The position numbers and the translations under genes were made by a program. Below are positions 14,636-59,888 of a stretch of DNA of 64,000 nucleotides, piece by piece. Source of the stretch: an uncultured Alphaproteobacteria bacterium (GTDB lineage Bacteria; Pseudomonadota; Alphaproteobacteria; HIMB59; GCA-002718135). The notes under the pieces were generated by a model. It did no database searches and was not told the DNA's origin. It worked only from the letters and a program-made list of their open reading frames with translations. The stretch covers positions 7,251 to 71,250 of the forward strand of contig CABXEZ010000003.1 in NCBI GenBank assembly GCA_902511405.1, in the 5' to 3' direction. Each line of letters opens with the position of its first letter. The first letter of the stretch is position 1.

Positions 14636-14649
14636 TTTTAGATTATAGA

Positions 14650-22845: not shown

Positions 22846-22847
22846 TA

Positions 22848-30813: not shown

Positions 30814-30818
30814 ACAAT

Positions 30819-36012: not shown

Positions 36013-36027
36013 ATTAACTTTTAAATC

Positions 36028-36054
36028 TCTGGCCAGTGTAAAACACTGGCCAGA
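36028..36054 (+). terminator. perfect 11-bp intercistronic stem-loop after the binding-protein gene (attenuator or mRNA stabiliser; no T tract)
   Basis: TCTGGCCAGTG (36028-36038), loop TAAAA, CACTGGCCAGA (36044-36054). Confidence 0.55.
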
Positions 36055-36064
36055 TTATCTCATA

Positions 36065-37042: not shown

Positions 37043-37044
37043 TT

Positions 37045-42164: not shown

Positions 42165-43070
42165 ATGAAAATTTTAGAAAGAGACTTTACCGGCTATGGC
42201 AAAGAACCACCTAATCCAAATTGGCCAAAAAAATCAAGACTCGCAATAAATTTCGTAATAAATGTTGAAGAAGGTTCAGAATATTCTCCTCTGCTCGGAG
42301 ACCTAAAATCTGAGTCAGGGCTATCTGAGGTTCCTGGAGGAAGGCACAATCAAAATCAAAGAGATTTAGCAATTGAATCAATTTATGAATATGGGTCTAG
42401 AGTAGGTTTTTGGAGAATAACTAAATTGTTGGATAATTATAAAATGCCCCATACTTTTTTTGTGTGTGCTTTGACACTGCTTCAAAATAAGGAAATATGT
42501 GAACACATTAAAAATTCTTCTAACGATATATGTTGCCATGGTTACAGATGGGAAGAGCATTATAGGTTAAATAAAATTATTGAAAAAAAACAAATAAAAA
42601 AAGCATATGATTTAATTCTAAAACTCACTAACAAAAAAGCTAAAGGTTGGTACTGTAGATATGCTCCAAGTGAAAATACTAGAAAATTACTTATTCAAAA
42701 TGGAAATTTCTTATATGATAGTGATGCATATAATGATGATTTGCCTTACTGGGTTGAGACTGGAGAAAAAAAACATTTAGTAATACCTTATTCTTTAGAT
42801 ACAAATGATGTTCATTTTAAGTTACCATCAGGATTTAGTGGCTCAACACAATTTTACGAATATGTATGTGATTCTATAAATTATTTATACAAAGAAGGTT
42901 CGCACCAACCTAAAATGCTGAATATAGGCCTTCATCCTAGGTTAATCGGAAGACCTGGAAGAGTTGTTGCAATAGAAAAAATTATAAAACACATAAGAAG
43001 TCTTAACAAGATTTGGGTATGCAAAAGAGAGGACGTTGCTCACCATTGGTATGCAAATTTTTATGAATAA
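42165..43070 (+). CDS. polysaccharide-deacetylase-fold hydrolase, PuuE-type allantoinase-like
   Basis: 301 aa. 'RDFTGYG...NWP', 'NVEEGSE', 'YEYGSRVGFWR', 'HGYRWEEH', 'YDSDAYNDDLPYW' and 'GLHPRLIGRPGR' follow the PuuE-like pattern. Confidence 0.75.
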   Translation: MKILERDFTGYGKEPPNPNWPKKSRLAINFVINVEEGSEYSPLLGDLKSESGLSEVPGGRHNQNQRDLAIESIYEYGSRVGFWRITKLLDNYKMPHTFFVCALTLLQNKEICEHIKNSSNDICCHGYRWEEHYRLNKIIEKKQIKKAYDLILKLTNKKAKGWYCRYAPSENTRKLLIQNGNFLYDSDAYNDDLPYWVETGEKKHLVIPYSLDTNDVHFKLPSGFSGSTQFYEYVCDSINYLYKEGSHQPKMLNIGLHPRLIGRPGRVVAIEKIIKHIRSLNKIWVCKREDVAHHWYANFYE

Positions 43071-44307
43071 TACTCAATACTCAAAATATCTTTTTAATAA
43101 AATTAAATCACTAACATTTGCAAACCCTGGTGTGACAAGAGAAACTTACGGTAAAGGTGAAAATGTAACTCACAAATTTTTAATTAAAGAATTAAAAAAA
43201 TTTTCTAATTCAGTAGAGATTGATTATGGAGGAAATTTTTTAGCTTTATACAAAGGAAAATCAAAAAAAATTATAGTGATTGGATCTCACCTAGATAGTC
43301 AAAAACATGGAGGTAATTTTGATGGTTTAGCTGGAGTACTAATGGGCATTATTTTAATTAAAACTCTCTACGAAAATAATATTACACCTAACTTTTCGAT
43401 TGGTGTAATGGGTATTAGAGGTGAAGAGAGCTGCTGGTTTCCTTATAGTTATATTGGAAGTAAAATAGCTGTTGGTAAGTTTGATAAAAAACTCCTCCAT
43501 TCTCTTGTAAGGTCAGATTCTAAAAAATCTTTATTTTATCATATCAACAAATCTGGATTTGATGCTAACAAAGTAAGTCAGGGTAAGGTGAAGTTTGATT
43601 TAAAAAATTTCAAATATTTTATAGAGCCTCACATAGAGCAGGGGCCAGTGCTTGAAAGGAATAAACTCCCTTTGGGTATAGTTACTAGTATTAGAGGCAG
43701 TTTTAGATTTAGAGATGCTGTTTGTAAAGGCGAGTACTTACATTCTGGAGCAACTCCAATTGATTATAGAAAAGATTCAGTTGTTGCAGTGTCATCATTG
43801 GTTAATGATATGAATATTTATTGGGAAGATCAACTAAAAAAAGGGAGAGATTTAACTATAACTTTTGGTCAATTCTTTACAGATTTTGAAGAACATTCTT
43901 TTGCTAAAAGTGCTGGACATGTAAGTTTTTGTATTGATGTAAGAAGTAGTTCGAAAGCGGTTCTTAAAAGCTCAAAAAAATATTTATTAAGTAAAATAAA
44001 GAGGATTGAGTTAAAAACAAAAACAACATTTTCTTTAGGAAAAGAAACAAACTCAGAACCTGCAATAATGAGTAAAAAATTAGTTAGAGTTTTTGAAGAT
44101 TATTCAAAATCAATTAAGATGAAGCCTATGATTTTGCCAAGTGGTGCTGGTCACGATTCTAGTGTTTTTGCAAATTTTGGTATCCCTTCTTTAATGTTAT
44201 TTATTCGTAATAAACACGGTAGTCATAATCCTAAAGAATATATGGGTATAAAAAATTTTATGACAGTGTTTGACGTTCTTTATGGAGTTATCATAAAAAA
44301 ATTATGA
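43063..44307 (+). CDS. M20-family amidohydrolase (allantoate amidohydrolase / N-carbamoyl-L-amino-acid hydrolase-like)
   Basis: 'IGSHLDSQKHGGNFDGLAGV' and 'SGAGHDS' motifs. ATG 43063 gives an ATGAATAA overlap with the previous stop. Alternative starts at 43036 and 43051. Confidence 0.78.
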   Translation: MNNTQYSKYLFNKIKSLTFANPGVTRETYGKGENVTHKFLIKELKKFSNSVEIDYGGNFLALYKGKSKKIIVIGSHLDSQKHGGNFDGLAGVLMGIILIKTLYENNITPNFSIGVMGIRGEESCWFPYSYIGSKIAVGKFDKKLLHSLVRSDSKKSLFYHINKSGFDANKVSQGKVKFDLKNFKYFIEPHIEQGPVLERNKLPLGIVTSIRGSFRFRDAVCKGEYLHSGATPIDYRKDSVVAVSSLVNDMNIYWEDQLKKGRDLTITFGQFFTDFEEHSFAKSAGHVSFCIDVRSSSKAVLKSSKKYLLSKIKRIELKTKTTFSLGKETNSEPAIMSKKLVRVFEDYSKSIKMKPMILPSGAGHDSSVFANFGIPSLMLFIRNKHGSHNPKEYMGIKNFMTVFDVLYGVIIKKL

Positions 44308-44311: not shown

Positions 44312-45409
44312 ATGTATGATCTAAATAAACATTACCAATCAAATAAAAAAGAAATTCTTCAATCTATCGACAAAATTCTAAACAAGGGAGTTTTGGAAAT
44401 GGGAGAAGAAGTTGAGAAATTTGAAGAAAATTTTAGCAAGTATTGTGGAGTAAAATATTCTGTAACTGTCTCTTCTGGCTCTATGGGGATTTTATTAGCA
44501 CTTAAAGCGCTGAATTTAAAAGGTAACGATGAAGTTATGACTGTTGCGAACTCTGATATACCAACCAGTCATGCAATATCTTTAGCAGGTGCTAAAATAA
44601 AATGGATAGATGTTTGTGAAGAAACTTTCAATATAGACACAAAATTACTTGATAAGAGCATTAATAAAAAATCTAAAGTTATTCTGCCTGTACATTTGTT
44701 TGGAAATCCTGCAGAAATGTTAAAGATTCAATTAATTGCAAAGAAAAATAATCTTTTAGTCATTGAAGATGCATGTCTCGCTACTGGAGCAGAATATAAT
44801 AAAAAAAAGATTGGCAGTTTATCTGATTTATGTGTTTTTAGTACAAATCCAGGAAAGGTGCTTGATGGGATTGGTTCTGGAGGTATAATAACTACAAATA
44901 ATAAAAAATTATTTATTACTCTAAAAAAACTTAGAGATTATGGTAGGCGAAGTAGGCCATCAAAATGGCCAGTGAAATCTGATTTAATTGGCTATAATTC
45001 TAAAATGTCCTCTATTAATGCAGCAATATTAAATATTCGTTTAAAATATTTGGATTCCTATATTGAAAAGAGAAATCAAAATGCTTTGATGTATATGGAT
45101 TTATTAGACTCCAAAAAAATTAAATTTCAAAAAGTTTTAGACAATTCAAAATCTGCATGGAGAAATTTCACAATAAGAGTAAAGAATAGAAACCAAATTT
45201 ACTCTGAATTATATGATAAAAATTTTAAAGTTGCTTTGGGATATTTACCAATTAATTATAAAGATGGATGCTATAAAAAATTAGGAAAGAATATTAATTT
45301 GAAAACTACAGAGATAATTAGTTCTGAAATAATTAATTTACCCTGCCATCAATATATGTCTAAAAAAGAAATATTCAAAATATCAAAAAATATTTTAAGT
45401 CTAGTTTAG
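44312..45409 (+). CDS. DegT/DnrJ/EryC1/StrS-family PLP aminotransferase
   Basis: 365 aa. 'PVHLFGNPA', 'VIEDACLATGAEY' and 'FSTNPGKVL' (PLP Lys). Confidence 0.8.
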   Translation: MYDLNKHYQSNKKEILQSIDKILNKGVLEMGEEVEKFEENFSKYCGVKYSVTVSSGSMGILLALKALNLKGNDEVMTVANSDIPTSHAISLAGAKIKWIDVCEETFNIDTKLLDKSINKKSKVILPVHLFGNPAEMLKIQLIAKKNNLLVIEDACLATGAEYNKKKIGSLSDLCVFSTNPGKVLDGIGSGGIITTNNKKLFITLKKLRDYGRRSRPSKWPVKSDLIGYNSKMSSINAAILNIRLKYLDSYIEKRNQNALMYMDLLDSKKIKFQKVLDNSKSAWRNFTIRVKNRNQIYSELYDKNFKVALGYLPINYKDGCYKKLGKNINLKTTEIISSEIINLPCHQYMSKKEIFKISKNILSLV

Positions 45410-46371
45410 TTGCAATTTACACAGCATTGATCAACCCAGTGATCAGGAGCAACTTCAATAAGACCCATTTCTATTTTTCCTTCTTTACATTCATGCGATG
45501 GGTTTGGGCATCTGGTTCTGAATACACATCCAGAGGGCGGATTGATAGGGCTTGGAATATCACCTTTAAGTAAAATTTTATTTTTATTTTTCCTAAATAT
45601 TTGAGGTGCTGTTTCAATTAATGATTTTGTGTAAGGGTGTTTAGGATTGGAAAAAAGATTTTTTGTAATAGCTACTTCAACTATATGTCCAAGATACATT
45701 ACCATTACTCTGTCAGCAATTTGGTTAATTACTGACAAATCATGAGATATAAATAGAATTGTTAGGGAATACTTTTCTTTTAATTCTAGAATTAAATTTA
45801 GAATTTGTGCTTGGATAGTAACATCAAGAGCTGAAACTGGTTCGTCAGCAATAATAAATTTAGGATCTAAAACTAATGATCTTGCAATACCTATTCTTTG
45901 TCTCTGACCTCCTGAAAATTCATGAGGGTATCTATTCAAATGTTCTTCTTGAAGTCCTACATCTTTGATTATTGTTAAAACTTTTTCATATATTTCCTGT
46001 TTATTCAAATTGGTATGAATTTTTAATCCTTGTGAAATAATATCGAATATTTTTTTTCTTGGATCTAGACTTGCAAAAGGGTCTTGAAATATTATTTGAA
46101 ATTCCTTTCTTAGTTTCCGCATCTCTTTTTCACTATAATCAATGATGTTATTATTATTATATAAAATTTCTCCTGCAGAGGGTTCAATCAGCCTAATAAT
46201 TGACCTACCTAAAGTCGTTTTACCTGATCCAGACTCACCAACAAGTCCAAGTATTTCACCTTCAGGTATCTTAAAATTTATATTTTCAACAGCCTTAACC
46301 TCACCATAATTTTTATTAAAAAAACCTCCCTTTATGGGAAAATATTTTCTTAAATTTTTTATTTCAATCAT
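45406..46371 (-). CDS. oligopeptide/dipeptide-type ABC ATP-binding protein (DppF/OppF-like) with Cys-rich tail
   Basis: The likely start is 'MIEIKNLRKYF' at 46371. Walker A 'GESGSGKTT', 'FSGGQRQR', and C-terminus 'PSGCVFRTRCPNPSHECK...DQCCVNCN'. Confidence 0.85.
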   Translation of the reverse strand: MIEIKNLRKYFPIKGGFFNKNYGEVKAVENINFKIPEGEILGLVGESGSGKTTLGRSIIRLIEPSAGEILYNNNNIIDYSEKEMRKLRKEFQIIFQDPFASLDPRKKIFDIISQGLKIHTNLNKQEIYEKVLTIIKDVGLQEEHLNRYPHEFSGGQRQRIGIARSLVLDPKFIIADEPVSALDVTIQAQILNLILELKEKYSLTILFISHDLSVINQIADRVMVMYLGHIVEVAITKNLFSNPKHPYTKSLIETAPQIFRKNKNKILLKGDIPSPINPPSGCVFRTRCPNPSHECKEGKIEMGLIEVAPDHWVDQCCVNCN

Positions 46372-46372
46372 G

Positions 46373-47356
46373 TTAATTACAGTTGTAACAACACTGATCA
46401 ACAAAATGACCAGGTTTTGGTTCAATTAAACCCATCTCACTAGTTCCATGTTTACATTCATGTGATGGATTTGGACATCTAGTTCTGAATACACATCCAG
46501 AAGGCGGATTGATAGGGCTTGGAATTTCCCCCTTTAATAATTTTATCTTTCTTTTCTCTTCTGTAATTTGAGGCGCTATATCTATAAGAGATTTTGTGTA
46601 TGAATGAAGAGGATTGTTAAATAACTCTTTTGTTTCAGCAATTTCCATAACATTGCCAAGATACATTACCATAACATGATCTGAAATTTCAGAAACCACG
46701 CCCAAGTCGTGAGTAATAAAGATAATTGACATCCCAAGTTTTTTTTGAAGTTCTTGCATCAATTCAATAATTTGTGCTTGTATAGTGACATCTAAGGCAG
46801 TGGTTGGTTCATCTGCTATAAGAATTTTTGGATTGCAAGATAGTGCCATAGCAATCATAGCTCTTTGACGCATTCCACCGGAAAGCTCGTGCGGAAAAGA
46901 GTCAATTCTTTTTTGAGGCTCAGGTATCCCAACTAAATCCAGCATATCAATTGCAATTTTTCTTGCCTCTTTTTTATTTTTATTTTGATGCAGCATTATT
47001 ACTTCAGAAATTTGAAAAGAAAGATCATATACAGGATTTAAACTTGTCATAGGTTCTTGAAAAATCATTGAGATACTATTACCTCTAATTTTTCTCATTT
47101 CTTTTTCTTCCATGTTAATTAGGTTATTGTTGTTAAAAATAATCTCACCTCTATCTGTTGAAGCTAAGTTATTAGGCAATAAACCCATTATTGATAATGC
47201 AGTAATAGATTTGCCTGATCCAGACTCACCAACTATTGCAAAAGTCTTACCAGCTTCAAGATCAAAAGAAACTCCATCGACAGCTTTTACAATTGAATTT
47301 CCAACAGTAAAATGTGTTTTTAAATTTTTTACACTTAGTAATTTTTCTTTACTCAT
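46373..47356 (-). CDS. oligopeptide/dipeptide-type ABC ATP-binding protein (DppD/OppD-like) with Cys-rich tail
   Basis: 327 aa. 'GESGSGKS', 'LSGGMRQR', and C-terminus 'PSGCVFRTRCPNPSHECK...DQCCYNCN'. Confidence 0.85.
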   Translation of the reverse strand: MSKEKLLSVKNLKTHFTVGNSIVKAVDGVSFDLEAGKTFAIVGESGSGKSITALSIMGLLPNNLASTDRGEIIFNNNNLINMEEKEMRKIRGNSISMIFQEPMTSLNPVYDLSFQISEVIMLHQNKNKKEARKIAIDMLDLVGIPEPQKRIDSFPHELSGGMRQRAMIAMALSCNPKILIADEPTTALDVTIQAQIIELMQELQKKLGMSIIFITHDLGVVSEISDHVMVMYLGNVMEIAETKELFNNPLHSYTKSLIDIAPQITEEKRKIKLLKGEIPSPINPPSGCVFRTRCPNPSHECKHGTSEMGLIEPKPGHFVDQCCYNCN

Positions 47357-48753
47357 ATTTTATTTCCAAACATTGGAGATACAAAAAAATTATTGTTTTT
47401 GTATTTATAAAATTTTTTATTATCATAAACAATTTTGCCATTTACAATAGTTGTTTTTACTATCCCTTTAATCTTATCGCCAAAATATAAATGAGCACAT
47501 TTTTTACCTTTAGAAACAAGAGTCTTTTGACTAACCATCCATTTTGCATTTAAGTCTAAAATACACAGATCAGCATCTGAGCCTTTTTTTATAATCCCCT
47601 TTCTTGGAAATATATTAAATCTCTTGGAAGGGTTTAGGCACATTAATTCAATAACTTTTTTTAAATTAATCTTTTTCTTAGAAGCCGCATCCAGCATTAA
47701 AGGTAGCATTAATTCCGCACCCGGTGATCCAGGTGGAGCTTTTGAAAAATCTTTTCTTCCTTTTAATTTTTCATTTAATGAAAAAGATGCGTGATCTGAT
47801 GCAATTATACTTAATGAATTATTTTTTAACCCTTTCCAAAGTTCATCTTGATCAACTTTGGTTCTTATAGGAGGATTTATTTTTCCAAACGGACCGACTT
47901 TGATAACATCTTTTTCAGTTTTAAATAAATAATGTGGACATGTTTCAGCACTTATATCTTGCCCTTTTTTTTGGAAATATGAAATTATATCTAAGGATGT
48001 TTTAGATGTAACATGAGCAATATGTATTTTTGTTTTTGCTATAGAATTTAAATTTAATATTTTTGATATAGCTAAAGCTTCAGCAATTGCTGGTCTTGTC
48101 GCATTATGTACTTCAGGATTCGATTTTTCAAAATTACTTTCAAATTTTTTGAAATAATCAAGCATACTTTGATCTTCAGCATGAAATATTGTAGTAAGAT
48201 TAGACTTCTTAGCATGCATTAGTGCATCTAAAATTTTATCCTCTTCAGTAAAACATAAACCGTCAAATTCTGACTTTCTGTTTGCTGGAGCTGCTATTGT
48301 AAAAATTTTAAAAGCAATAGCTCCATTTTTAATTAAACTGTTCAGATTAGAATTAGTCAGTTTGCCTATAGCGGGTATAAAAGCAAAATTGATAATAGTA
48401 TTTTTTGAAAAATGTTCTTTTCGATCTTTTAGCACTTTTCCATTGGACATGCATGGATCACTTATTGGCATTTCAAACAATGTTGTAATCCCACCTTTTG
48501 CTGCAGCTTTTGTTTCACTTTCTACTGTGCCTCTTTCAGGGAATGAAGGGGCTCTTACATGAAAATGAACATCTACAACACCAGGAATAACTGTTTGATT
48601 TTTCGCATCTATAATTTTTTTTGCTTCATATGATTTAATGTTATTTGAGATTTCTAGGATTTTACCCTTATTGACTAACACATTTATAATTTGAAATTTA
48701 TTTTTATAAAAAACTTTTCCATTTTTAATTATTAAATCAATTTTTTTATTCAT
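47353..48753 (-). CDS. cyclic amidohydrolase (dihydroorotase/allantoinase/hydantoinase family)
   Basis: 466 aa. 'PGVVDVHFHVR', 'GGITTLFEMP', 'AEDQ' and 'ASDHA' blocks fit the metal-dependent cyclic amidase superfamily. Confidence 0.8.
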   Translation of the reverse strand: MNKKIDLIIKNGKVFYKNKFQIINVLVNKGKILEISNNIKSYEAKKIIDAKNQTVIPGVVDVHFHVRAPSFPERGTVESETKAAAKGGITTLFEMPISDPCMSNGKVLKDRKEHFSKNTIINFAFIPAIGKLTNSNLNSLIKNGAIAFKIFTIAAPANRKSEFDGLCFTEEDKILDALMHAKKSNLTTIFHAEDQSMLDYFKKFESNFEKSNPEVHNATRPAIAEALAISKILNLNSIAKTKIHIAHVTSKTSLDIISYFQKKGQDISAETCPHYLFKTEKDVIKVGPFGKINPPIRTKVDQDELWKGLKNNSLSIIASDHASFSLNEKLKGRKDFSKAPPGSPGAELMLPLMLDAASKKKINLKKVIELMCLNPSKRFNIFPRKGIIKKGSDADLCILDLNAKWMVSQKTLVSKGKKCAHLYFGDKIKGIVKTTIVNGKIVYDNKKFYKYKNNNFFVSPMFGNKI

Positions 48754-50176
48754 TTTTAAAAATTTTTAATTCTTTCAAAGCTTTTGCAACTCCATCAAGA
48801 TTAGATAATTTCATTGATGAATAATTAGGAGAAAGAACAAAACCTTCACCCCCAGCTTTATAAGTAGCTAAGACTGATCTATAAGCTATGTCAGGTGTAC
48901 ATATTGCTTGGTCTTTTGATGATCTTGGTGCATCAATTCCAATTCCCATATAAACTTTAGATCCTCCATCAACCCCTCTTACTGCATCTTTACACTGAGT
49001 GTAGATATAAGTATCAGGATCTAAGCCTCGTTGCGTAAGTTTTTCAAGACTTGTTTCATTTATCCCAAGTATCTTTGCAAAAACTCTAGTTAATTCAGAG
49101 CCAGATAAATCATCTAAAATTGTTTTACCAAAAATATCAATTTCTCTTTGAAATATTTCTCCAGATTGATGCTGATAGGTAATTGGTTTTACCCAATCTG
49201 AATATTCAACTTGTTCTTTCCAAGGCCATTGAATTTTCCTGATTAAATTGAAATGATTTCTGTTCCAAACATTCAGACCAAAAGATAAATTTGGATTTAC
49301 CCATTTCACTAAACCATAAATTTCTTTATCTAAATCTTTATTACGTTGTAACCAAAATTTCTCCCACTCAAGTATTTCTGGTTTTTCAAATAAATGTCTA
49401 AAAAACTCTATAAAATTTCCATCAACAAATTTCTTTCCCTCTCGTATATCAATAAAAAATTCATACATATATTTTAGTGAGTCTTTTATTTTAGGAATGT
49501 TTAAATTATTTTGACTAGCTTCAAGTAAAAATTGATTTGAAAAATCTCCTGGAGCGTTTCCTTGAAACAATTGATCTAGTGGTGAATATCTCTCGTTACA
49601 CCACATCACGCCATCGATATCATAATTAGCAACTTGATCTTCAATCATTGAAAGTATCCAATTTCTGTAATCTAAATTGCTAGTGGATGGAGATGAACTT
49701 ATTTTTCCAAAAATATCTATTTCCATACATTGAACAAGATTTGGAAGATCAACTCCTGTTGCAGAGCCATGACCAGCGTAATTAAAAAATGGTTCCATTA
49801 ACTCTATGAAAACTTTCATCCCACGCTCTTTAGCTTTGGGTATAACCATTTTTAAAATATCGTTATTGATCATTTCTTTATCTTGCGCTTTAAAATTTTT
49901 GATGAATGTTTTGTTATAAAATTTTGGGTCAGGATCAAAATATGCCCCACCTTTCATCGCAAAGGGTTCAGGAATTCCATGATCTGGCCACCCGTCTATT
50001 TTCCAAGATACGGATCTACCAGACTTTAATCCTAGCCATGAAACAGTGCCAATAAGAAGTACATTAATACCTACTCTATTTTGAAGCGTGTCTAAAACTT
50101 GATCTACGCCTTCATCTATAAAAGAAATTGGACTTATTTGAATACCAGCAAATTTATTATTTATTTCTTTACTCAT
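48746..50176 (-). CDS. hypothetical protein, no recognisable family (possibly TIM-barrel-like)
   Basis: 476-aa uninterrupted ORF, translationally coupled on both sides (8-nt overlaps). I recognise no diagnostic motif. Confidence 0.6.
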   Translation of the reverse strand: MSKEINNKFAGIQISPISFIDEGVDQVLDTLQNRVGINVLLIGTVSWLGLKSGRSVSWKIDGWPDHGIPEPFAMKGGAYFDPDPKFYNKTFIKNFKAQDKEMINNDILKMVIPKAKERGMKVFIELMEPFFNYAGHGSATGVDLPNLVQCMEIDIFGKISSSPSTSNLDYRNWILSMIEDQVANYDIDGVMWCNERYSPLDQLFQGNAPGDFSNQFLLEASQNNLNIPKIKDSLKYMYEFFIDIREGKKFVDGNFIEFFRHLFEKPEILEWEKFWLQRNKDLDKEIYGLVKWVNPNLSFGLNVWNRNHFNLIRKIQWPWKEQVEYSDWVKPITYQHQSGEIFQREIDIFGKTILDDLSGSELTRVFAKILGINETSLEKLTQRGLDPDTYIYTQCKDAVRGVDGGSKVYMGIGIDAPRSSKDQAICTPDIAYRSVLATYKAGGEGFVLSPNYSSMKLSNLDGVAKALKELKIFKNE

Positions 50177-51329
50177 TTATAAAATTTTTTATTCTGTTCA
50201 TTGACTCTTCTATTTTATTTATTGGTTGTAAATATGATAGACGAATATATTTATCTTCATCATCGCCAAATAATGTCCCAGGAAATAGTAAGACGCCAGT
50301 TTTTTCTAATAGTTTTTTACAAAAATCAGATGCTGCTAAACCTGAATTAGACACATTAGTATAAATATAAAAAGCACCACCTGGATCACCGTATGAGAAT
50401 CCTATCTCATCCAAGGCTTTCATACAAAATTTTCTTCTGATGTTGTACTCATCTTTCATTTTAATAATTTCATCTTGAGGACCTTCTAAAGCAGCTAAGG
50501 CTCCAAATTGGGAAAAAGTGCACGAATTAATTGATAATGAATGCCTAATCTCTGACATTTTTTTTATTATATCTTCTGGTCCTGCTACATATCCAATTCT
50601 CCATCCAGTCATTGCATAGGTTTTTGAGAACCCATTTAGAGTGAGTGTTCGTTCTTTCATATTTTCAAGAGTTGCAATTGATAAATGTTCATGATTTTCA
50701 TAAATTAAATCAGCATAAATTTCATCTGCGATTACTATTAAATTATGCTTTATGGCTATGTCGGCAATCTTTTTTATATTTTCCGGTGGTGTAACTGCTC
50801 CAGTAGGATTGTTTGGTGAAACAAGAACTATTACTTTAGTTTTGTCATTTATTTTCCCTTCAATAATCTCTGGCATTAATGAAAAATTATTTTTTTCATA
50901 AGTGGGGATTGGTATAGGTTTGGCATTGCACATTCTTACATTCAGATCATAAGTTGTAAACCTAGGTGAGGTTATAAGTACTTCATCCCCAGTTTCTAGT
51001 AAGCTTAACATCGCTAAAGCGATACTTTCTTGCACTCCTGCAGTTACTACTATTTCATTCTCACTGTAATTTAGATTATATTTTTCTTGTAAATTTTTTG
51101 AAATAGCAACTCTTAATTCTGGCAAACCATTTGGTGGAGTGTAATGATGTTTATTATCATCTAAAGCTTTTTTTGCAGCTTCAACTATATGTTTCGGGGT
51201 ATGAAAATCAGGATCACCTCTTCCCAAAGGTATCACATCATCAATTTTAGATGCTATACTTAATAATTCTGATCTAAAAGATTCATCATCTAGAGATATT
51301 TTTTTCGATTTATCAAAAATAATTGTCAT
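50169..51329 (-). CDS. class I/II PLP aminotransferase (aspartate/aromatic type)
   Basis: 386 aa. 'NPNNPTG', 'SKTYAMTGWRIGY' (PLP Lys) and 'RLSY'. Confidence 0.85.
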   Translation of the reverse strand: MTIIFDKSKKISLDDESFRSELLSIASKIDDVIPLGRGDPDFHTPKHIVEAAKKALDDNKHHYTPPNGLPELRVAISKNLQEKYNLNYSENEIVVTAGVQESIALAMLSLLETGDEVLITSPRFTTYDLNVRMCNAKPIPIPTYEKNNFSLMPEIIEGKINDKTKVIVLVSPNNPTGAVTPPENIKKIADIAIKHNLIVIADEIYADLIYENHEHLSIATLENMKERTLTLNGFSKTYAMTGWRIGYVAGPEDIIKKMSEIRHSLSINSCTFSQFGALAALEGPQDEIIKMKDEYNIRRKFCMKALDEIGFSYGDPGGAFYIYTNVSNSGLAASDFCKKLLEKTGVLLFPGTLFGDDEDKYIRLSYLQPINKIEESMNRIKNFINE

Positions 51330-52564
51330 TATACCAACCTATTGCCACTAATATAAACTTGTCTGACATTCGATAAATCATCAATGTTTTGATCAGGTTT
51401 ACCTTCAACTATAATTAAATCAGCTTCTTTTCCAACTTCAATAGAGCCGAGCTTATCATCCATTTTATTCACTTTTGCAGCTCGGTAAGTAGCAGATTGA
51501 ATAGCATCAAGATTATTTTTAACTACTCCAAGATCAATCATAAATTTCATTTCTGGAACTATAGCATCATGAGGTACTACTGGGGACCCTGCATCTGTTC
51601 CAAATATAATTTGAATTCCTGCCTCACTGGCTTTAACTAAAGAGTCAAATCTTGATTTATCCTTAACAATTTTTTGTCTTTCCTCTATTTTCCATTCTGG
51701 GATATTATACTTTCTTGCTATTTCAGCATTACTTTGCATTACAACTGGAGAAAAAGTTGTGCAAATTGGAATATTTTTTTTAGCAACCTTTTCTATAGTT
51801 GATTCGGTCATAGGACCTCCATGCTCTATGCAATCAATTCCAAAATCAACAACCCTACTAATTGCATCATTAAACGTTGCATGAGCGGTAATATATAGCC
51901 CATTTCTATGAGTCTCATCAATGACTGCGGTTAATTCTTCATCTGTAAATTCAAGAGTATCATGACACGCCATAATTTTAATTAAGTCTGCGCCAGCTCC
52001 AACTTGTTCTCTTACTGCTCTTCTCATTTCATCAGCCCCTGATGCTTCTCTACAACACCAATAAGTATGTCCAGCAGTTTGAACTATAGCTTCTCCACAA
52101 ATTTTAAGCCTTGGACCAGGATAAATACCTTGCTCTATAGCTTGTTTTGCAAAAATATTAGTTTTATTCATGCCAAGATCTCTAACTAAAGTAATACCTG
52201 CTCTAAGAGATTTTAACATATTTGCACATGATTTATATGCAGATATTTCAACTGCATCATCCATAGATTGTTGTGCTAAGTCATGTGTTCCATCCCAAGC
52301 CAGATGTGCATGAGAATTCATTAGGCCTGGTAATAATGTATGATCTTTAAGCTCAATAATTTTTTTGTTTTTTATTTCCTTACTTAGTTGAGATTGTTGA
52401 CCAACCTTAATTATCTTTCCATCTTCAATCTCTACAAATCCATTCTCAATTATTTCAAGTGATTTAGGTTCAATAATTCTAAGTTTGAATAAAATATTTT
52501 CTTTATTGTCTTCAAATAAAGGACGAAGTATTTTTCTAAATTTCCATGGTGCTGCTTCTGGCAT
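51329..52564 (-). CDS. amidohydrolase_1 family metal-dependent hydrolase
   Basis: 411 aa. 'LLPGLMNSHAHL', 'ITAHA', 'CIEHG' and 'GTDAG' motifs. Confidence 0.8.
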   Translation of the reverse strand: MPEAAPWKFRKILRPLFEDNKENILFKLRIIEPKSLEIIENGFVEIEDGKIIKVGQQSQLSKEIKNKKIIELKDHTLLPGLMNSHAHLAWDGTHDLAQQSMDDAVEISAYKSCANMLKSLRAGITLVRDLGMNKTNIFAKQAIEQGIYPGPRLKICGEAIVQTAGHTYWCCREASGADEMRRAVREQVGAGADLIKIMACHDTLEFTDEELTAVIDETHRNGLYITAHATFNDAISRVVDFGIDCIEHGGPMTESTIEKVAKKNIPICTTFSPVVMQSNAEIARKYNIPEWKIEERQKIVKDKSRFDSLVKASEAGIQIIFGTDAGSPVVPHDAIVPEMKFMIDLGVVKNNLDAIQSATYRAAKVNKMDDKLGSIEVGKEADLIIVEGKPDQNIDDLSNVRQVYISGNRLV

Positions 52565-52573
52565 TTCTCTTCC

Positions 52574-53743
52574 TCAGTTTAAGTTAATAATTCTATTATC
52601 AATACTTTTATCTAAAAAGTTTGGTATTTGTTTTCCTCTGCTTTTTCCAACTATCATTGAACTTATTGTTCGATATCCATCTATATTTGGTCGGTAAATT
52701 CCTGGCTCATTAGAAAAAACCATATTCTCTTTAAGTACTGTTTTATCACCTGGTGATAACCAAGGAGCTTCGTGTCCCTCAAAACCCATACCATGACCAA
52801 TTCTATGCCTTACATATTTAGTTAAGTTATACTCACGATAGACTTCTGAAGTAGATTTATTTACTTCTTCACAAATATTACCTTCTTTAAGATTTTCCAC
52901 AGCTACATCATTTACTTTTTTCATGGCTTTAATTATATTTTCTTGGTCTTTATTTGGTTCACCTAAAATAAAAGTTATTCCTGACTCGGCGTACAATCCT
53001 CCAACACATGCACCCACACCACAAATAAGCGTTTCATTTTTTTGAGGAACTCTACTTAGAGATTTACCATGTGGAAATGCTCCTCTGGGACCAGAATGAA
53101 TTGTAGCGACAACATTGCAAGGCGTTTCATCGAACGCACTGGACAATTCATTTAACATCCGTGTTTTTGAAAATTCTGTACATATCTTAACAAGGGATCT
53201 TTCATCAATATTTTGATTAATTAATTCTTTTGCATTGTCTCTTAGATACTCAATTGCAAGATCAGCATATTTAGATGCAATGGAGATAAGTTTAATTTCC
53301 TCATCAAGTTTTTCAAATCTAAAATTTTCTAAACCAGTGTTATGATCTAAGATATCAAATTTGTTTTCTAGTAAATTTAAGATATCAATATTTTTTATAT
53401 CAGTACCAACATTTTTTTCTGTGATATTATTTGCCATAAAAGAGAAGGGGTTAATTTCTCCTGGAAATTCTTCATAAATATTTATTTCATTCACATTCAG
53501 ATTCTCCGCATTTTCTTTTTCAAGTAAAGGAATGAATAATTTAGTTTTATTATTTTTTGATAAATAAAAACCTGATGGCCTTTCATTAGTAACATAAAAA
53601 AAACCAGTGAAATAAAAAATATTTGCAGGATTAGTAACTAAGCAACCATCTAGATTTTTTTCATGTATTAAATTTAGTAATTTTTTTCTAGTATTCTTGT
53701 AAAAATTTTCACTTAGTGGAGAAATATTATTTTGTATATTCAT
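52574..53743 (-). CDS. M24-family hydrolase (Xaa-Pro peptidase / creatinase / ectoine-hydrolase-like)
   Basis: 389 aa. Creatinase_N-like N-terminus. 'HRIGHGMGFEGHE' and 'VFSNEPGIY' pita-bread metal motifs. Confidence 0.8.
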   Translation of the reverse strand: MNIQNNISPLSENFYKNTRKKLLNLIHEKNLDGCLVTNPANIFYFTGFFYVTNERPSGFYLSKNNKTKLFIPLLEKENAENLNVNEINIYEEFPGEINPFSFMANNITEKNVGTDIKNIDILNLLENKFDILDHNTGLENFRFEKLDEEIKLISIASKYADLAIEYLRDNAKELINQNIDERSLVKICTEFSKTRMLNELSSAFDETPCNVVATIHSGPRGAFPHGKSLSRVPQKNETLICGVGACVGGLYAESGITFILGEPNKDQENIIKAMKKVNDVAVENLKEGNICEEVNKSTSEVYREYNLTKYVRHRIGHGMGFEGHEAPWLSPGDKTVLKENMVFSNEPGIYRPNIDGYRTISSMIVGKSRGKQIPNFLDKSIDNRIINLN

Positions 53744-54801
53744 TAATTTAAATTTAACTTTTCAATTTTTAAATTATCTGCAAGTTCTTCAAATGATAAT
53801 AAAACTTCATCATCGAGAGGTATGCCAAACTTCATTTTTTCTTCAACTCTCTTATTTTCTATCTCTCCTGGCACTAAGATTTCATTAAAATCTGGTCTAA
53901 GAGGAAGTGTTTTAATTGTATCAACAAAATCATCTATGCGTTTATAAAATTCAGTAATCTCCATAAACCAATCAATATTGATTGCTGTCAATGAATGAGA
54001 TACATCTAATTTTTTTGGATCAGAATAAGGTATCAAACCATAACCGCCGCCACTAATTACGCCTGTCAAGACGTCAGTCATAAAAGACAAACCGTATCCT
54101 TTATATTGCCCTATACCGAGAAGAAAACCATCCATAGCTTCTGAAGGATTTGTTGTTTCATAACCTTCTTTCGTAATAGCCCAATCATTTGGCATTGGTT
54201 TATTTTCTCTCTCATGCCATCTCATCATTCCTTTACCAGCAGTTGTAAGAGCAATATCAAGTATGAGTGGAAAGCCTTTTCCAGTGGGACAAGATATTCC
54301 CCATGGGTTTGTACCTACTCCTCCACTTTTAGATCCCCAAGGAGCCATTTCTGGTCCAGCATTTGTATAGACTACGCCTATGCAATTTTTTTTAGTTGCT
54401 TTTACAGCATGAACGGAGCTTGAACCAAAGTGGGTTGAATTTTTAATGATGACTTTACCTATACCTTCTTTTTTTGCTTTATTAATTGCAATATCCATAC
54501 ATTTTGAAGCTTGCACAGTACCTATTCCATTTTTCGCATCAATTAAAGCAAGTGATGAACTCTCTTTTATAATTTCATATTCTGCATTGACATTAACTTC
54601 ATTATTTTTGATTCTTTTATAATAGGTTGTTATTCTCTGTACCCCTTGACCTTGGCCAGATTGAAATCTTAGCTCAGAAAACATGAGTGCGTCAGAAAAA
54701 ATCTCTGCATCAATTTTATTTAATCCCATTGCAATAAAAGAATTTAAAACGAATTCTTTTAAATTCTGAAAATTTACCGAGGTCATTTTGATATCGGTCA
54801 T
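53743..54801 (-). CDS. Ldh_2 family dehydrogenase (ureidoglycolate / Pyr2C / sulfolactate dehydrogenase-like)
   Basis: 352 aa. 'STHFGSSS', 'GTNPWG' and 'KGYGLSF'. Paralog of 4312-5361. Confidence 0.8.
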   Translation of the reverse strand: MTDIKMTSVNFQNLKEFVLNSFIAMGLNKIDAEIFSDALMFSELRFQSGQGQGVQRITTYYKRIKNNEVNVNAEYEIIKESSSLALIDAKNGIGTVQASKCMDIAINKAKKEGIGKVIIKNSTHFGSSSVHAVKATKKNCIGVVYTNAGPEMAPWGSKSGGVGTNPWGISCPTGKGFPLILDIALTTAGKGMMRWHERENKPMPNDWAITKEGYETTNPSEAMDGFLLGIGQYKGYGLSFMTDVLTGVISGGGYGLIPYSDPKKLDVSHSLTAINIDWFMEITEFYKRIDDFVDTIKTLPLRPDFNEILVPGEIENKRVEEKMKFGIPLDDEVLLSFEELADNLKIEKLNLN

Positions 54802-54805
54802 GATT

Positions 54806-55684
54806 TTACTTAATAAATTTTATATAATTAATTATGTTAGCACTTGACTCTAGCTTTGCCTTCGCATTATTTTTTTTTGATGACATTAAAATTGTTATAC
54901 CTGGTCCATAGCCAGCTCGAGGCCCATTAGTTTGTCCAATTATGCCAACAGCCCAAGCATTTCTTAAAAAACCATGTTGATAGCTGCTGTCATAGTTCTC
55001 TATATAGATAATATCTCCAAGCTTTAATTTATCTAATTTATATTTCTTCATTTCAGAGCTATCAGTTGTTTGAATGTGGAGTGAACCAGACTCACTTGTT
55101 AGTCCTGATCCAGCACCAATTAGATGTTCTGGAATTATATGAGTAACAGGTATTACCATCTTCTTATCTTTATTTTTAATATTCATTTTAACAAAAAGTT
55201 GAGGAGATAAGCTTTTACAGAATACGTCTTTAAAGTTATTTATTTTTAGACCAACCCCAAATGACTTTATTAATATTTTATCATTGATTGAAATTTTTTC
55301 TCTGATTTTTTTTGGAAAATGGACAATTACTTGCTCTGAAAATCGACCTGACTTTCCTGTTACAATCCCTTTTGCATTCTTTGCTTCACCACTCATTATG
55401 GTTGCATCATTGCCAACGCAGGATAAAATATTTAATCCCCGATTGCCTGCCTCACTAGGATATTTTATTGATACGCCTGGATGTATACAATCTGCTTCCC
55501 AACCAAATGCAGAATCTCCAATTGATACATTATGGACTATTGATCCCCAGCTTGGTAAAAGAAAAGGAGAGCCATTTGAGTCTAATCTATAGGGTTCAGC
55601 TGGTAAACCTTGAAAATTAGGCTGACAGACTGAGCCTACAACACTTACATTTACTAATAATTTTTCATTTGTTTCTATTTTCAT
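54806..55684 (-). CDS. unknown-function protein, paralog B (resembles what I recall as DUF4438)
   Basis: 292 aa. Shares 'GD.AFGW..D.I.PGVSI', 'SGEAK..G.VTG', 'KL.LGD.I.I' and 'G.GPGI' blocks with the adjacent gene. The family assignment is from memory and unverified. Confidence 0.6.
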   Translation of the reverse strand: MKIETNEKLLVNVSVVGSVCQPNFQGLPAEPYRLDSNGSPFLLPSWGSIVHNVSIGDSAFGWEADCIHPGVSIKYPSEAGNRGLNILSCVGNDATIMSGEAKNAKGIVTGKSGRFSEQVIVHFPKKIREKISINDKILIKSFGVGLKINNFKDVFCKSLSPQLFVKMNIKNKDKKMVIPVTHIIPEHLIGAGSGLTSESGSLHIQTTDSSEMKKYKLDKLKLGDIIYIENYDSSYQHGFLRNAWAVGIIGQTNGPRAGYGPGITILMSSKKNNAKAKLESSANIINYIKFIK

Positions 55685-56544
55685 AATTTTATCTTTAGTA
55701 TATTTTTTAAATTAGCATTTTTATTAATTTTCCAACCGAGGTTTTTTTTAGTTCCAGTCATGATTGTCATTATTCCTGGACCATGACCAGTCATAACAGA
55801 GTCACCATGAATACAAAGAGCAATACTCACATGGTCTTTTTTATAGGAACGTCCCCATCTGTGGTCTGCGTGATTTATAACAATTAAATCTCCTAATTTC
55901 ATTTGATCTATTTTTAACTGTTTCATTAATGACCGATCACCAGACATTAAGTCTTGATCCACATACTCAGAATTTAACTCAGCTCCAGAACCCATTATTT
56001 TAATTGGTAACTCTATTGCAACATCGACGATTAACTTTTTATTTTCAACTTTGAAATTCATAGATTTTAAAAAATTGGGGTCAATTTTTTTAATTTCAAT
56101 TTCTAGAAAATCTAATAATTTTAAACCCCTACCATGAGTTATGATATCAATTTGATCTCCAACACAAATTTTTTCAAGTGTATTCTGTTCAAAATGAATT
56201 AAATTTCTAGCATGCTCTCCTGTAACGACACCAGTTTTGCCTTTAGCTTCTCCTGATCTCACAATTGCTTTATTCCCAGTACAAACCAGGTAGTGCAAAG
56301 CAAAATGCTCATTAATGTTTTCTGAGTCAATGGAAACTCCAGGCTCTATGTGATCACCGCTCCATCCAAAAGCTTTATCTCCAACTTTGACATTATTTAC
56401 CACACCATACATACCAGGCAGTATTACTGAATTTCCGTCGTTATTAGGAATATATCCTGGGTTTTTAAAAGATGGTTGAGTTACATATCCACCAATTGAC
56501 ATTTTAATTAAATTTTTTTCGTTGGTTTTTAAATTTGGAATCAT
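55681..56544 (-). CDS. unknown-function protein, paralog A (DUF4438-like); first gene of the minus-strand operon
   Basis: 287 aa. ATGA overlap with paralog B. Same conserved blocks. Confidence 0.6.
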   Translation of the reverse strand: MIPNLKTNEKNLIKMSIGGYVTQPSFKNPGYIPNNDGNSVILPGMYGVVNNVKVGDKAFGWSGDHIEPGVSIDSENINEHFALHYLVCTGNKAIVRSGEAKGKTGVVTGEHARNLIHFEQNTLEKICVGDQIDIITHGRGLKLLDFLEIEIKKIDPNFLKSMNFKVENKKLIVDVAIELPIKIMGSGAELNSEYVDQDLMSGDRSLMKQLKIDQMKLGDLIVINHADHRWGRSYKKDHVSIALCIHGDSVMTGHGPGIMTIMTGTKKNLGWKINKNANLKNILKIKL

Positions 56545-56591
56545 TAACTTTCAAATAACTTGTTTAAATAAAATAAAAAATAACAAAATAG

Positions 56592-56661
56592 TCACTTCAG
56601 TGGTGCTAAAATGTGATCTATATATATAAATAAGATTGCAAAATTATCACCACTGAAGTGA
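56592..56661. promoter_or_regulatory. 14-bp perfect inverted repeat TCACTTCAGTGGTG / CACCACTGAAGTGA separated by 42 bp in a divergent promoter region
   Basis: Arms at 56592-56605 and 56648-56661, read directly. The right arm itself contains TATCAC-N7-GTGATA. Confidence 0.55.
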
Positions 56662-56709
56662 TAATTTATCTATTTCTTAAAATGTCAAAAAGCTTTAGAA
56701 ACGAAAAAT

Positions 56710-59887: not shown

Positions 59888-59888
59888 A

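Follow-up and report, generated by a model that had tools for sequence, protein, structure and literature searches.

A 64,000-nt stretch of DNA from an uncultured alphaproteobacterium of the HIMB59 lineage (GenBank assembly GCA_902511405.1, contig CABXEZ010000003.1, positions 7,251 to 71,250; hereafter the window) carries a minus-strand operon of ten genes encoding hydrolases, an aminotransferase, an oxidoreductase, two transport ATPases, a pair of DUF4438 proteins and a 476-aa barrel protein. This operon is part of a larger catabolic gene island. The functional unit comprises about 24 genes over about 24 kb in the window, from a LysR-family regulator gene (39672) to beyond the window's end at 64.0 kb. 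The original prediction had drawn the unit at 45406-56544; the operon stands as it was drawn, while the extent does not, and the sugar-type oxidoreductases of the island and its own binding protein and permease had been missed.

A check of open reading frames returned the ten minus-strand genes at 56544-45406, where they had been predicted. In transcription order, the first eight junctions measure −4, +4, −1, +9, −1, −8, −8 and −4 nt, and the ninth, between the DppD and DppF genes, is a 1-nt gap with the DppF ATG at 46371 (an upstream TTG would give a 53-nt overlap). With this corrected start all nine junctions lie within −8 to +9 nt, in agreement with the claim of ten tightly packed genes on one strand. 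Promoter-like and terminator-like matches within the operon are not commoner than in shuffled sequence, so nothing speaks against one transcript. An Rfam scan of the window returned zero known RNA elements, and the G+C content of the window is about 30% throughout. The families proposed for all ten genes, and for the neighbouring PuuE-like, M20, AstE/AspA and M32 proteins, were recovered with Pfam and NCBIfam (Table 1).

Table 1. Genes and control region of the island, with positions in the window
Feature	Position	Strand	Basis
DUF4438 paralogue a	55681..56544	-	PF14505 + PF20999; TM1086-like motifs
DUF4438 paralogue b	54806..55684	-	PF14505 + PF20999
Ldh_2 NAD(P)-dependent oxidoreductase (type-2 malate/lactate dehydrogenase family)	53743..54801	-	Pfam 321 bits (gathering 38.8)
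Atypical M24 'pita-bread' hydrolase	52574..53743	-	Peptidase_M24 120 bits (>23) + Creatinase_N 46 bits (>22)
Amidohydrolase-superfamily carboxypeptidase/dipeptidase-type enzyme, 411 aa	51329..52564	-	Amidohydro_1; NF051886 212 bits
Class-I aminotransferase AT1	50169..51329	-	Pfam Aminotran_1_2 244 bits
Predicted cytoplasmic glycoside-hydrolase-like (β/α)8 barrel, 476 aa	48746..50176	-	Homologues, AlphaFold2 model, Foldseek
Cyclic amidohydrolase (hydantoinase/allantoinase/dihydroorotase clade)	47353..48753	-	ErtD/AllB/D-hydantoinase matches
DppD/OppD-type ABC ATPase	46373..47356	-	ABC_tran + oligo_HPY
DppF-type ABC ATPase	45406..46371	-	ABC_tran + oligo_HPY; PRK11308 389.5 bits (cut-off 408)
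LysR-family regulator, divergent from Glyoxalase/AstE arm	39672..40583	-	Pfam HTH_1 + LysR_substrate
Glyoxalase_4 (VOC) copy a	40679..41170	+	PF13669; best NCBIfam methylmalonyl-CoA epimerase 63 bits < 115
AstE/AspA-family deacylase	41172..42155	+	Pfam AstE_AspA_cat 88 bits
PuuE-like polysaccharide-deacetylase-fold hydrolase	42165..43070	+	TIGR03212 346 bits
M20 amidase, hydantoinase/carbamoylase family	43036..44307	+	TIGR01879 238 bits
DegT/DnrJ/EryC1 sugar-type aminotransferase	44312..45409	+	Pfam 281 bits; PseC 229 bits < 424
Divergent control region with conserved dyads	56545..56709		165 nt; putative function
M32 (Taq-type) carboxypeptidase	56710..58245	+	Pfam 556 bits (gathering 25)
Class-I aminotransferase AT2	58242..59408	+	Pfam 222 bits; orthologues 55-62%
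Glyoxalase_4 (VOC) copy b	59405..59887	+	PF13669; orthologues 53-59%
Extended-SDR epimerase/dehydratase-type protein	59886..60779	+	Rossmann motif TGAGGFLGS; C-terminal part Epimerase/GDP_Man_Dehyd (Pfam)
GFO/IDH/MocA oxidoreductase	60766..61770	+	Pfam; inositol 2-dehydrogenase model 92 bits < 355
Periplasmic family-5 solute-binding protein	61909..63468	+	SBP_bac_5 226 bits; Sec signal peptide
DppB-type permease, cut by window end	63533..64000	+	ATG at 63533; N-terminus recognised by eye, no family search

The island is inherited as a unit across phyla. A one-genome-per-species scan found 270 genomes with a relative of the barrel protein, and the best 80 of these 270 loci were retrieved and scored by tblastn with the window proteins for collinearity of at least eight of the ten operon genes. 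This degree of order is kept in 61 of the 80 loci, and a chance cluster of unrelated genes was rejected on that ground; the divergent arm of M32 (orthologues 50-55% identical), aminotransferase and glyoxalase genes is also kept in 58. Collinear copies were found in 31 of 34 loci from named Alphaproteobacteria, in all 7 from metagenome-assembled genomes (MAGs) labelled 'Pseudomonadota', in 14 of 16 from window-like genomes, in 7 of 15 from Gemmatimonadota and in 2 of 7 from Trueperaceae. The common order is Glyoxalase ← AT2 ← M32, then DUF4438a, DUF4438b, Ldh_2, M24, amidohydrolase, AT1, barrel, (hydantoinase), DppD and DppF. Distant orthologues of most proteins have median identities of 51-63% (60% for AT1, 63% for the barrel), but those of the M24 and hydantoinase-like enzymes only 40-41%. 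The identity of the barrel follows no taxonomic gradient (Truepera 67%, Gemmatimonadota 67%, Rhizobium 66%, Rhodobacterales 63-66%), which argues for lateral transfer of the whole unit. Plasmid carriage was not a transfer route seen in PLSDB, whose plasmids yielded only two distant homologues of the barrel and none of DUF4438a. The closest relatives of the window, at 85-96% identity, are marine alphaproteobacterial single-amplified genomes (SAGs) and MAGs (the AG-4xx series, MarineAlpha5_Bin12 and a 'Pelagibacteraceae' MAG). A kinship of MarineAlpha5 with HIMB59 has been described, and MAGs once labelled 'Pelagibacteraceae' were reassigned to relatives of HIMB59 (PMC8879329). Cultured carriers of the island are Devosia, Neorhizobium galegae, Rhizobium spp. 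(including Rhizobium sp. RU36D) and several Rhodobacterales.

Variation among the copies separates a constant core from accessory genes. The hydantoinase-like gene occurs in 67 loci, but most Gemmatimonadota copies lack it. Under a 60% coverage filter, no DUF4438 pair is seen in one window-like MAG and in some Gemmatimonadota, which nevertheless keep Ldh_2, amidohydrolase, AT1 and barrel genes. Few of the loci, retrieved with 10-kb flanks, yielded PuuE-like, M20 and AstE genes, which mostly lie outside these flanks. What remains constant is Ldh_2, the 411-aa amidohydrolase, an aminotransferase, the barrel, M32 and the transporter, and this core suggests a peptide-like conjugate rather than a simple ureide as the substrate. 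The original idea of one catabolic unit is retained; the unit is rich in amidases and aminotransferases, conserved and co-inherited. Furthermore, sub-modules of the island occur in Acidobacteriota and Chloroflexota. Microvirga, Granulicella cerasi and Anaerolineae combine DUF4438a, DUF4438b and Ldh_2 with the same transporter type and without most of the hydrolases. The Microvirga antarctica module has GFO and M20 genes and a ureidoglycolate lyase gene nearby; that of Granulicella cerasi has an M32 gene and, about 5 kb upstream on the opposite strand, an aminotransferase/amidohydrolase/barrel group with a 58% identical barrel; and that of an Anaerolineae MAG has Glyoxalase, aminotransferase, AstE, M20, hydantoinase-like, M14 and M24 genes, the M14 family being present in the Rhizobium locus as well. 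Ldh_2 is found in every cluster variant, and together with the transporter it is the constant hub of these variants. In Granulicella cerasi (L086 6352-7053) and the Anaerolineae MAG (L087 7243-7944), a 233-aa partial class-I aminotransferase precedes the full-length one and could be a split or regulatory subunit.

Membership of known pathways was judged by the curated equivalog cut-offs of NCBIfam. All twelve of the following models scored below their cut-offs: AllB (TIGR03178, 295 bits against 358), PuuE (TIGR03212, 346 against 425), AllC (TIGR03176, 186 against 598), AllD (TIGR03175, 151 against 496), DoeA (TIGR02993, 39 against 613), DoeB (TIGR02994, 94 against 403), ErtD (NF058539, 326 against 650), ErtE (NF058540, 224 against 520), D-hydantoinase/dihydropyrimidinase (TIGR02033, 278 against 393), sulfolactate dehydrogenase (234 against 500), amidohydrolase-type Xaa-Pro dipeptidase (NF051886, 212 against 500) and PepQ (NF040821, 129 against 630). 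AT1 likewise reached no NCBIfam equivalog cut-off. Only the M20 enzyme (43036-44307) passes a subfamily cut-off, namely that of TIGR01879 (238 against 204 bits), which does not define a substrate. These scores set the island apart from the pathways whose NCBIfam models were tested, and canonical allantoin, ectoine, ergothioneine and D-hydantoinase enzymes were rejected on the same basis. The earlier statement had been that the genes do not follow the canonical gene orders for allantoin, ectoine or hydantoin utilisation.

The catalytic residues of the two amidohydrolases are nevertheless intact. In the hydantoinase-like enzyme, whose nearest structures are an L-hydantoinase (1gkr) and a D-hydantoinase (1nfg), H63, H65, K149, H191, H247 and D320 are invariant in 65 of 65 orthologues and agree with the residues expected of the family; we take them to be the HxH motif, the carboxylated lysine, two histidines and the catalytic aspartate. 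With the M20 enzyme above the hydantoinase/carbamoylase cut-off, the cyclic-amide or ureide element of the original prediction keeps its footing. The 411-aa amidohydrolase has H85, H87, K196, H248 and D324 invariant in 66 of 66 orthologues and H228 in 65. Its neighbours in the Protein Data Bank (PDB) are 2qs8, the Arg carboxypeptidases 3be7 and 3mtw, the prolidase 3feq/3n2c and ochratoxinase-type amidases, and its solved relatives comprise Xaa-Pro dipeptidases, Arg/Lys carboxypeptidases and N-acyl-Phe amidases. As its HxH/K/H/H/D site is intact but the NF051886 cut-off is not reached, it is probably an active relative of the Xaa-Pro dipeptidases and not a member of that family. The M24 enzyme is different. 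Aligned to the prolidase of Pyrococcus furiosus (1PV9), whose metal ligands we take to be D209, D220, H284, E313 and E327, it has G242, E253, H317, E346 and I360 at the ligand positions, all invariant in 66 of 66 orthologues. As two of the five ligands are missing, it was rejected as a standard prolidase, and it appears from the alignment to represent a conserved subfamily without the second metal site.

The 476-aa barrel had been described as an orphan, a label that no longer applies: a search of a 5.8-billion-protein collection returned 693 homologues, with 61-67% identity in other phyla. Among 1.84 billion representatives at 50% identity, the family has 970 members at E ≤ 1e-3, and the window's whole clade is one representative in that library; in an alignment of 18 sequences, the mean column identity is 78%. 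The AlphaFold2 model (predicted TM score 0.86) is a (β/α)8 barrel, and its best Foldseek matches in the PDB are the GHL10 domain of Cwp19, the C-terminal domain of PgaB, GH29, GH42, GH164 and GH35, at a TM score of about 0.5 and a sequence identity of 10-14%. The Pfam GHL10 model (PF02638) gives 18.5 bits, below its cut-off of 27.9, and sequence searches against solved structures, single and profile, found nothing meaningful. Twelve residues are invariant in 71 of 71 barrels of the clade (D65, H66, E125, E128, N194, E195, R196, H308, K330, Y334, H336 and D415) and sit at strand ends. Glycoside hydrolases of the clan GH-A type have an acid/base glutamate after strand 4 and a nucleophile after strand 7. 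In the barrel, N194-E195 follows strand 4, with E195-R196 kept in distant homologues too, whereas D415, which follows strand 7, is not shared by the Parabacteroides homologues. Judged by the model, the protein is most readily described as a conserved glycoside-hydrolase-like barrel.

Distant barrel homologues on annotated replicons, at 30-31% identity, point to glycoprotein and hydroxyproline contexts. On a megaplasmid of Granulicella tundricola, a homologue at 31% identity is flanked by genes for a peptidyl-prolyl isomerase and an aminopeptidase P, directly downstream of genes for GH127, an aldehyde dehydrogenase, a proline-racemase-family protein, a three-subunit FAD dehydrogenase, a dihydrodipicolinate synthase (DHDPS)-family protein and an M1 peptidase. 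This gene set matches the canonical trans-4-hydroxyproline pathway together with the HypBA1-type arabinofuranosidase family; the enzyme families are those described in PMC4113996. In a glycan-utilisation locus of the Bacteroidota, Parabacteroides distasonis has two homologues after SusC/SusD, near GH43, BglX and a prolyl-oligopeptidase-family gene, and a further metagenomic homologue adjoins a GHL6/GH42M protein. A Tat signal is present in two of the three distant replicon homologues, the exception being the second Parabacteroides copy, which is without a signal. All three (L093 9854-11398; L092 9857-12890) carry a C-F-C-E-H-(C/H) motif; both features are absent from the alphaproteobacterial, Gemmatimonadota and Trueperaceae clade, so that transfer of function to the window's barrel is uncertain. 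The Granulicella cerasi orthologue has a CFCPQC version of the motif.

Both DUF4438 proteins clearly belong to their family, with 119-163 bits per domain (PF14505, PF20999). The paralogues are about 35% identical to each other, and paralogue b is about 36% identical to TM1086; paralogue a has the TM1086 motifs, such as GDH.EPG and GHGPG, and b is the divergent partner. A Foldseek search with the DUF4438 model against the PDB found TM1086 (3dcl, 3n99) at E = 1e-30, a TM score of 0.85 and 35-36% identity, as the sole fold neighbour. A TM1086 structure first became available in 2008, and a search for the TM1086 family gave more than 7000 hits. A full-text literature search for DUF4438, TM1086, PF14505, GHL10 and PF02615/Ldh_2 found no functional work relevant to the cluster, and the sole literature match to PF14505 names another family. 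In six lineages the two paralogues are consistently paired, adjoining Ldh_2 or one gene away from it. TM1086-type genes share the fold; in contrast to the island's pair, they are single-copy and stand in housekeeping contexts unrelated to the island in Thermotoga, Caloranaerobacter and Zhenhengia. There they adjoin a rhomboid protease in Thermotoga (L089 8001-9525), an Rce1-like CAAX protease in Zhenhengia (L091 7044-8855) and an unannotated 547-aa protein in Caloranaerobacter (L090 6346-8864). The ancestral DUF4438 family may have a separate, non-catabolic role, and these contexts give no information on the catabolic pair.

The Ldh_2 protein cannot be matched to a single activity among sulfolactate, ureidoglycolate, diketogulonate and Δ1-pyrroline-2-carboxylate/Δ1-piperideine-2-carboxylate (Pyr2C/Pip2C) enzymes by equivalog scores, with both the sulfolactate dehydrogenase (234 < 500) and AllD (151 < 496) models below cut-off. 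Its nearest PDB entries are 1v9n from Pyrococcus horikoshii, annotated as a malate dehydrogenase, and the sulfolactate dehydrogenase 2x06 from Methanocaldococcus, with AllD lower. A second Ldh_2 paralogue in the window (4312-5361) is only 30% identical to that of the operon.

The arms beside the operon recur in other genomes as well. On the DppF side, the Glyoxalase_4, AstE-like, PuuE-like, M20 and DegT genes are faced by the LysR gene and converge on DppF. A LysR orthologue with 80-85% identity holds the same position in four related SAG loci (L008, L011, L013, L015), and the protein presumably acts as the regulator of the island; the adjoining regulator is of the LysR type in the window's lineage and of the GntR/FCD type in other lineages. 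AstE/AspA orthologues (58-59%) adjoin the Glyoxalase, AT2 and M32 genes in Rhizobium, Neorhizobium, Devosia and Gemmatimonadota, PuuE-like orthologues (44-47%) flank the cluster in Gemmatimonadota and Trueperaceae, and DegT orthologues are present in related SAGs (65-72%) and in the Trueperaceae locus L062 (41%). On the M32 side, GFO orthologues (40-42%) occur in the clusters of Truepera, Trueperaceae and Anaerolineae, and relatives of the short-chain dehydrogenase/reductase (SDR) protein (23-27%) adjoin GFO in Truepera and Anaerolineae. At least three lineages include GFO, SDR and DegT in the cluster. The SDR frame is open from 59886 but has no ATG, GTG or TTG before 60216; a rare ATA or ATT start beside the Glyoxalase stop codon, translational coupling or a recent loss of the start codon may account for this.

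Transport is of the Dpp/Opp type, with a family-5 binding protein, oligo_HPY ATPases and one permease start visible before the window's end. Orthologues of the binding protein (45-62%) lie beside the cluster in Rhodobacterales, Trueperaceae, Anaerolineae, Microvirga and Granulicella, which suggests that the DppD/DppF pair, an orphan otherwise, has its cognate receptor in this protein. Among solved structures, the agropinic-acid receptor AgaA comes nearest to it (1.5e-29, 106 bits), followed by GsiB/YliB (1uqw) and the agrocinopine receptor, all with modest scores. A second complete peptide-type ATP-binding cassette (ABC) system lies directly upstream of the LysR gene, at 34378-39665. It consists of a binding protein of family 5, two permeases and a 579-aa double ATPase fusion, which share only 22-41% identity with the transporter genes found with the cluster in other lineages.

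The divergent region between the operon and the M32 gene contains a 36-nt imperfect inverted repeat (arms 56574-56609 and 56644-56679), a perfect 10-nt dyad (56641-56650/56658-56667) and a TTGACA/AATTAT promoter-like site at 56688-56661. An ATCA-N9-TGAT block and a second related block are kept in seven related genomes; these relatives are close, so their conservation is only suggestive. The conserved block TGGTGATAATTTTGCA (56641-56667; aligned in L006-L020), about 95 nt upstream of the DUF4438a start, resembles a σ54 −24/−12 element with GG and GC ten bases apart. A σ54-type promoter was rejected for this region, as the TGG-N9-TTGCA pattern is broken at −24 and the GG is GC in two of the seven relatives.

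Several known systems share parts of this gene set. Ectoine breakdown uses an M24 hydrolase (DoeA/EutD), an AstE-type deacetylase (DoeB/EutE), the aminotransferase DoeD and the dehydrogenase DoeC (PMC5924519), and the island likewise joins an M24 hydrolase, an AstE/AspA deacylase, aminotransferases and an oxidoreductase, suited to amide cleavage, deacylation and transamination. However, the aminotransferase of ectoine degradation is of the acetylornithine type whereas those of the island are class I, and the ectoine pathway has no counterpart of the island's M32, barrel, DUF4438, hydantoinase and Dpp-type transporter. Allantoin, hydantoinase-carbamoylase and ergothioneine systems share a cyclic amidohydrolase, a PuuE-like protein, an M20 amidase and Ldh_2 with the island, but have another gene order, all equivalog scores of the island's enzymes are below their cut-offs, and M32, the amidohydrolase, the barrel, DUF4438, the two aminotransferases, GFO and SDR have no role in those pathways. 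Hydroxyproline and proline-peptide neighbourhoods resemble the island in combining an Ldh_2 family member with peptidases and ABC transporters; in such hydroxyproline clusters, Ldh_2/MLD2 enzymes have been proven to act as Δ1-pyrroline-2-carboxylate reductases (PMC4113996). Unlike these loci, the island lacks the proline-racemase family, a D-hydroxyproline dehydrogenase, a DHDPS-type deaminase and a semialdehyde dehydrogenase. Opine and dipeptide operons with cluster-C (family-5) receptors, such as AgaA for agropinic acid, resemble it in their family-5 binding protein, DppBCDF-type parts and cytoplasmic catabolic enzymes, although the island's binding protein is only weakly similar to AgaA (106 bits). 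Enzymes of the HyuA/B type and oxidases serve in the catabolism of agropinic acid, and neither of these families was seen among the island genes.

What does the island degrade? Best supported is the general reading that the region forms one self-contained island, spread by lateral transfer, for the catabolism of a small organic-nitrogen compound with amide linkages, which a dedicated family-5 ABC system would import. Three groups of genes point in different directions and none is decisive: M32, the amidohydrolase and the Dpp-type transporter point to a peptide-type substrate; the hydantoinase-like, PuuE-like and M20 enzymes and the pairing of M24 with AstE point to a cyclic amide or ureide; and the barrel fold with GFO, SDR and DegT points to a sugar-linked substrate. 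As a tentative candidate, we favour a short peptide modified by glycosylation, N-blocking or ring closure, possibly of the proline/hydroxyproline (Pro/Hyp)-rich glycopeptide type. In the order of steps that we infer, the family-5 binding protein, DppB/C-type permeases and DppD/DppF ATPases would import the compound, and M32 would remove C-terminal residues. The 411-aa amidohydrolase (of the carboxypeptidase/N-acyl-amino-acid hydrolase type), the M24 variant and the AstE-like and M20 deacylases would then cleave the remaining amide bonds, with the hydantoinase-like and PuuE-like enzymes opening a cyclic amide or ureide where present. The barrel might strip a sugar-like substituent, to be processed by GFO, SDR and DegT. 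Freed amino acids would be transaminated by AT1 and AT2, and Ldh_2 would interconvert a 2-oxo acid or cyclic ketimine with its reduced form, while a putative DUF4438 a/b heteromer may carry out a further catalytic step coupled to Ldh_2.

A number of observations weigh against this glycopeptide proposal. All the functional links are those of family, fold or neighbourhood. The Pro/Hyp lead comes from two annotated loci whose barrels are 30-31% identical to that of the window, two of three of them being Tat-exported, and several of the residues invariant in the window's clade are missing from these distant barrels. The canonical hydroxyproline genes are absent from the island, and the M24 enzyme, with two ligands lost, is no canonical prolidase. 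The closest solved relatives of Ldh_2 are archaeal malate and sulfolactate dehydrogenases, and no solved Δ1-piperideine-2-carboxylate reductase appears among its PDB matches at E ≤ 1e-20. The barrel falls below the GHL10 cut-off, matches known structures at a TM score of about 0.5 and has no residue assigned as a nucleophile. Single-copy DUF4438 genes of Thermotoga and Clostridia stand in unrelated contexts. Finally, the hydantoinase-like, PuuE-like and M20 enzymes suit a ureide at least equally well.

The last point leads to the original reading, a pathway for cyclic ureides, hydantoins or N-carbamoyl compounds, in which an imported 5-substituted hydantoin, dihydropyrimidine-like or other cyclic amide would be opened by the hydantoinase-like or PuuE-like enzyme, decarbamoylated by M20, handled by M24 and AstE as in the breakdown of ectoine, with ring opening followed by deacylation, and passed to the aminotransferases and Ldh_2. 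We regard it as rather unlikely. The hydantoinase-like enzyme, with its intact active site and presence in 67 loci, has ErtD, allantoinase and hydantoinase as its best families and L- and D-hydantoinases as its nearest structures; M20 exceeds the hydantoinase/carbamoylase cut-off, the PuuE model gives 346 bits, and the altered metal site of M24 is compatible with a non-peptidase hydrolase. In addition, the M24 and AstE/AspA pairing mirrors EutD/EutE (PMC5924519), and the Microvirga module has genes for ureidoglycolate lyase and M20 as neighbours. Yet no equivalog cut-off is reached for AllB, PuuE, AllC, AllD, DoeA, DoeB, ErtD, ErtE or D-hydantoinase, most Gemmatimonadota copies lack the hydantoinase while keeping M32, the 411-aa amidohydrolase and the barrel, and M32, the barrel, GFO, SDR, DegT and DUF4438 are left unexplained.

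The island might instead have no single substrate and serve general salvage of peptides and N-acyl amino acids, as a co-regulated toolbox for whatever the Dpp-type transporter imports. Its overlapping hydrolases (M32, M24, the amidohydrolase, AstE, M20, and M14 in Rhizobium and Anaerolineae) and the variation of accessory genes by lineage would suit such a role, but gene order and 50-63% identity across phyla are stricter than a loose toolbox would predict, two core families without assigned function are among the best conserved (barrel median 63%), and the dedicated, co-transferred binding protein suggests one ligand class; general salvage seems an improbable explanation. The chance is slimmer still for muropeptide catabolism, in which the barrel would act on an amino sugar, the PuuE-like fold, DegT, GFO and SDR would process amino sugars, and peptidases would dismantle the D/L stem peptide, with diaminopimelate or lactate left to the aminotransferases and Ldh_2. 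The barrel's two best folds act on N-acetylglucosamine-type polymers (the peptidoglycan lytic transglycosylase Cwp19, and PgaB), LL-diaminopimelate aminotransferase is among the class-I aminotransferase matches, and peptidoglycan is presumably present in all habitats of the island. Those aminotransferase matches are, however, far below cut-off, the PuuE-like protein is nearer to allantoinase than to peptidoglycan deacetylases (346 versus 30 bits), the distant barrels stand in glycoprotein and hydroxyproline contexts and not in cell-wall contexts, and no N-acetylmuramoyl-L-alanine amidase, NagZ, MurQ, AnmK or LD-carboxypeptidase was found in the island or the loci examined.

Returning to the modified-peptide reading, the island could, on a speculative extension that we hold with low confidence, encode an undescribed pathway for a widespread form of dissolved organic nitrogen, namely peptidase-resistant remnants of glycopeptides or glyco-amino acids (for example from hydroxyproline-rich glycoproteins), with the DUF4438 heteromer and the barrel each performing a new reaction. 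The enzymes of the island all fall in known superfamilies except DUF4438, the barrel at the level of fold only. The locus thus brings together two well-conserved core families without assigned function, DUF4438, for which structures are solved, and a small glycoside-hydrolase-like barrel family. If the proposal is true, DUF4438 would gain a first function, and a nutrient niche of HIMB59-type bacterioplankton would come to light. The streamlined marine bacteria that carry the island are abundant, and genomes of this streamlined type are small. The closest relatives of the window are HIMB59-related marine alphaproteobacteria with AT-rich streamlined genomes, and retention of an island of about 24 genes in so small a genome suggests that its substrate matters in the sea. 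A genomics paper on AEGEAN-169/HIMB59 mentions no peptide, hydantoin or hydroxyproline metabolism. Near-unchanged transfer among Alphaproteobacteria, Gemmatimonadota and Trueperaceae marks the island as a self-contained metabolic capability, and its cultured carriers allow the question of the substrate to be tested directly. The identity of the substrate would extend models of organic-nitrogen turnover and annotate hundreds of genomes.

The rest of the window holds other gene clusters. A separate region for sugar and sugar-acid catabolism at 188-16090, which includes the second Ldh_2 paralogue, encodes a xylose-isomerase-like TIM barrel, GFO/IDH/MocA, SDR and mannitol-dehydrogenase-family proteins, the mannonate dehydratase UxuA and a sugar ABC transporter, together with an aldo-keto reductase, an enolase-superfamily dehydratase, an Amidohydro_2 protein, a PfkB kinase and a KDPG-type aldolase. 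Between this region and the haem genes, at 16320-17258 and 20565-24761, lie genes for an agmatinase (190 bits > 174), a cyclopropane-fatty-acid-synthase-family methyltransferase, a 346-aa protein without a Pfam match and a 637-aa OmpA-domain protein. The haem biosynthesis cluster itself (26274-32644), adjoined by a Flavodoxin_5 protein, comprises 5-aminolevulinate synthase (569 bits, above cut-off), uroporphyrinogen decarboxylase, ferrochelatase, coproporphyrinogen oxidase and an unusually long porphobilinogen deaminase of 511 aa, of which only residues 6-239 match the family domain.

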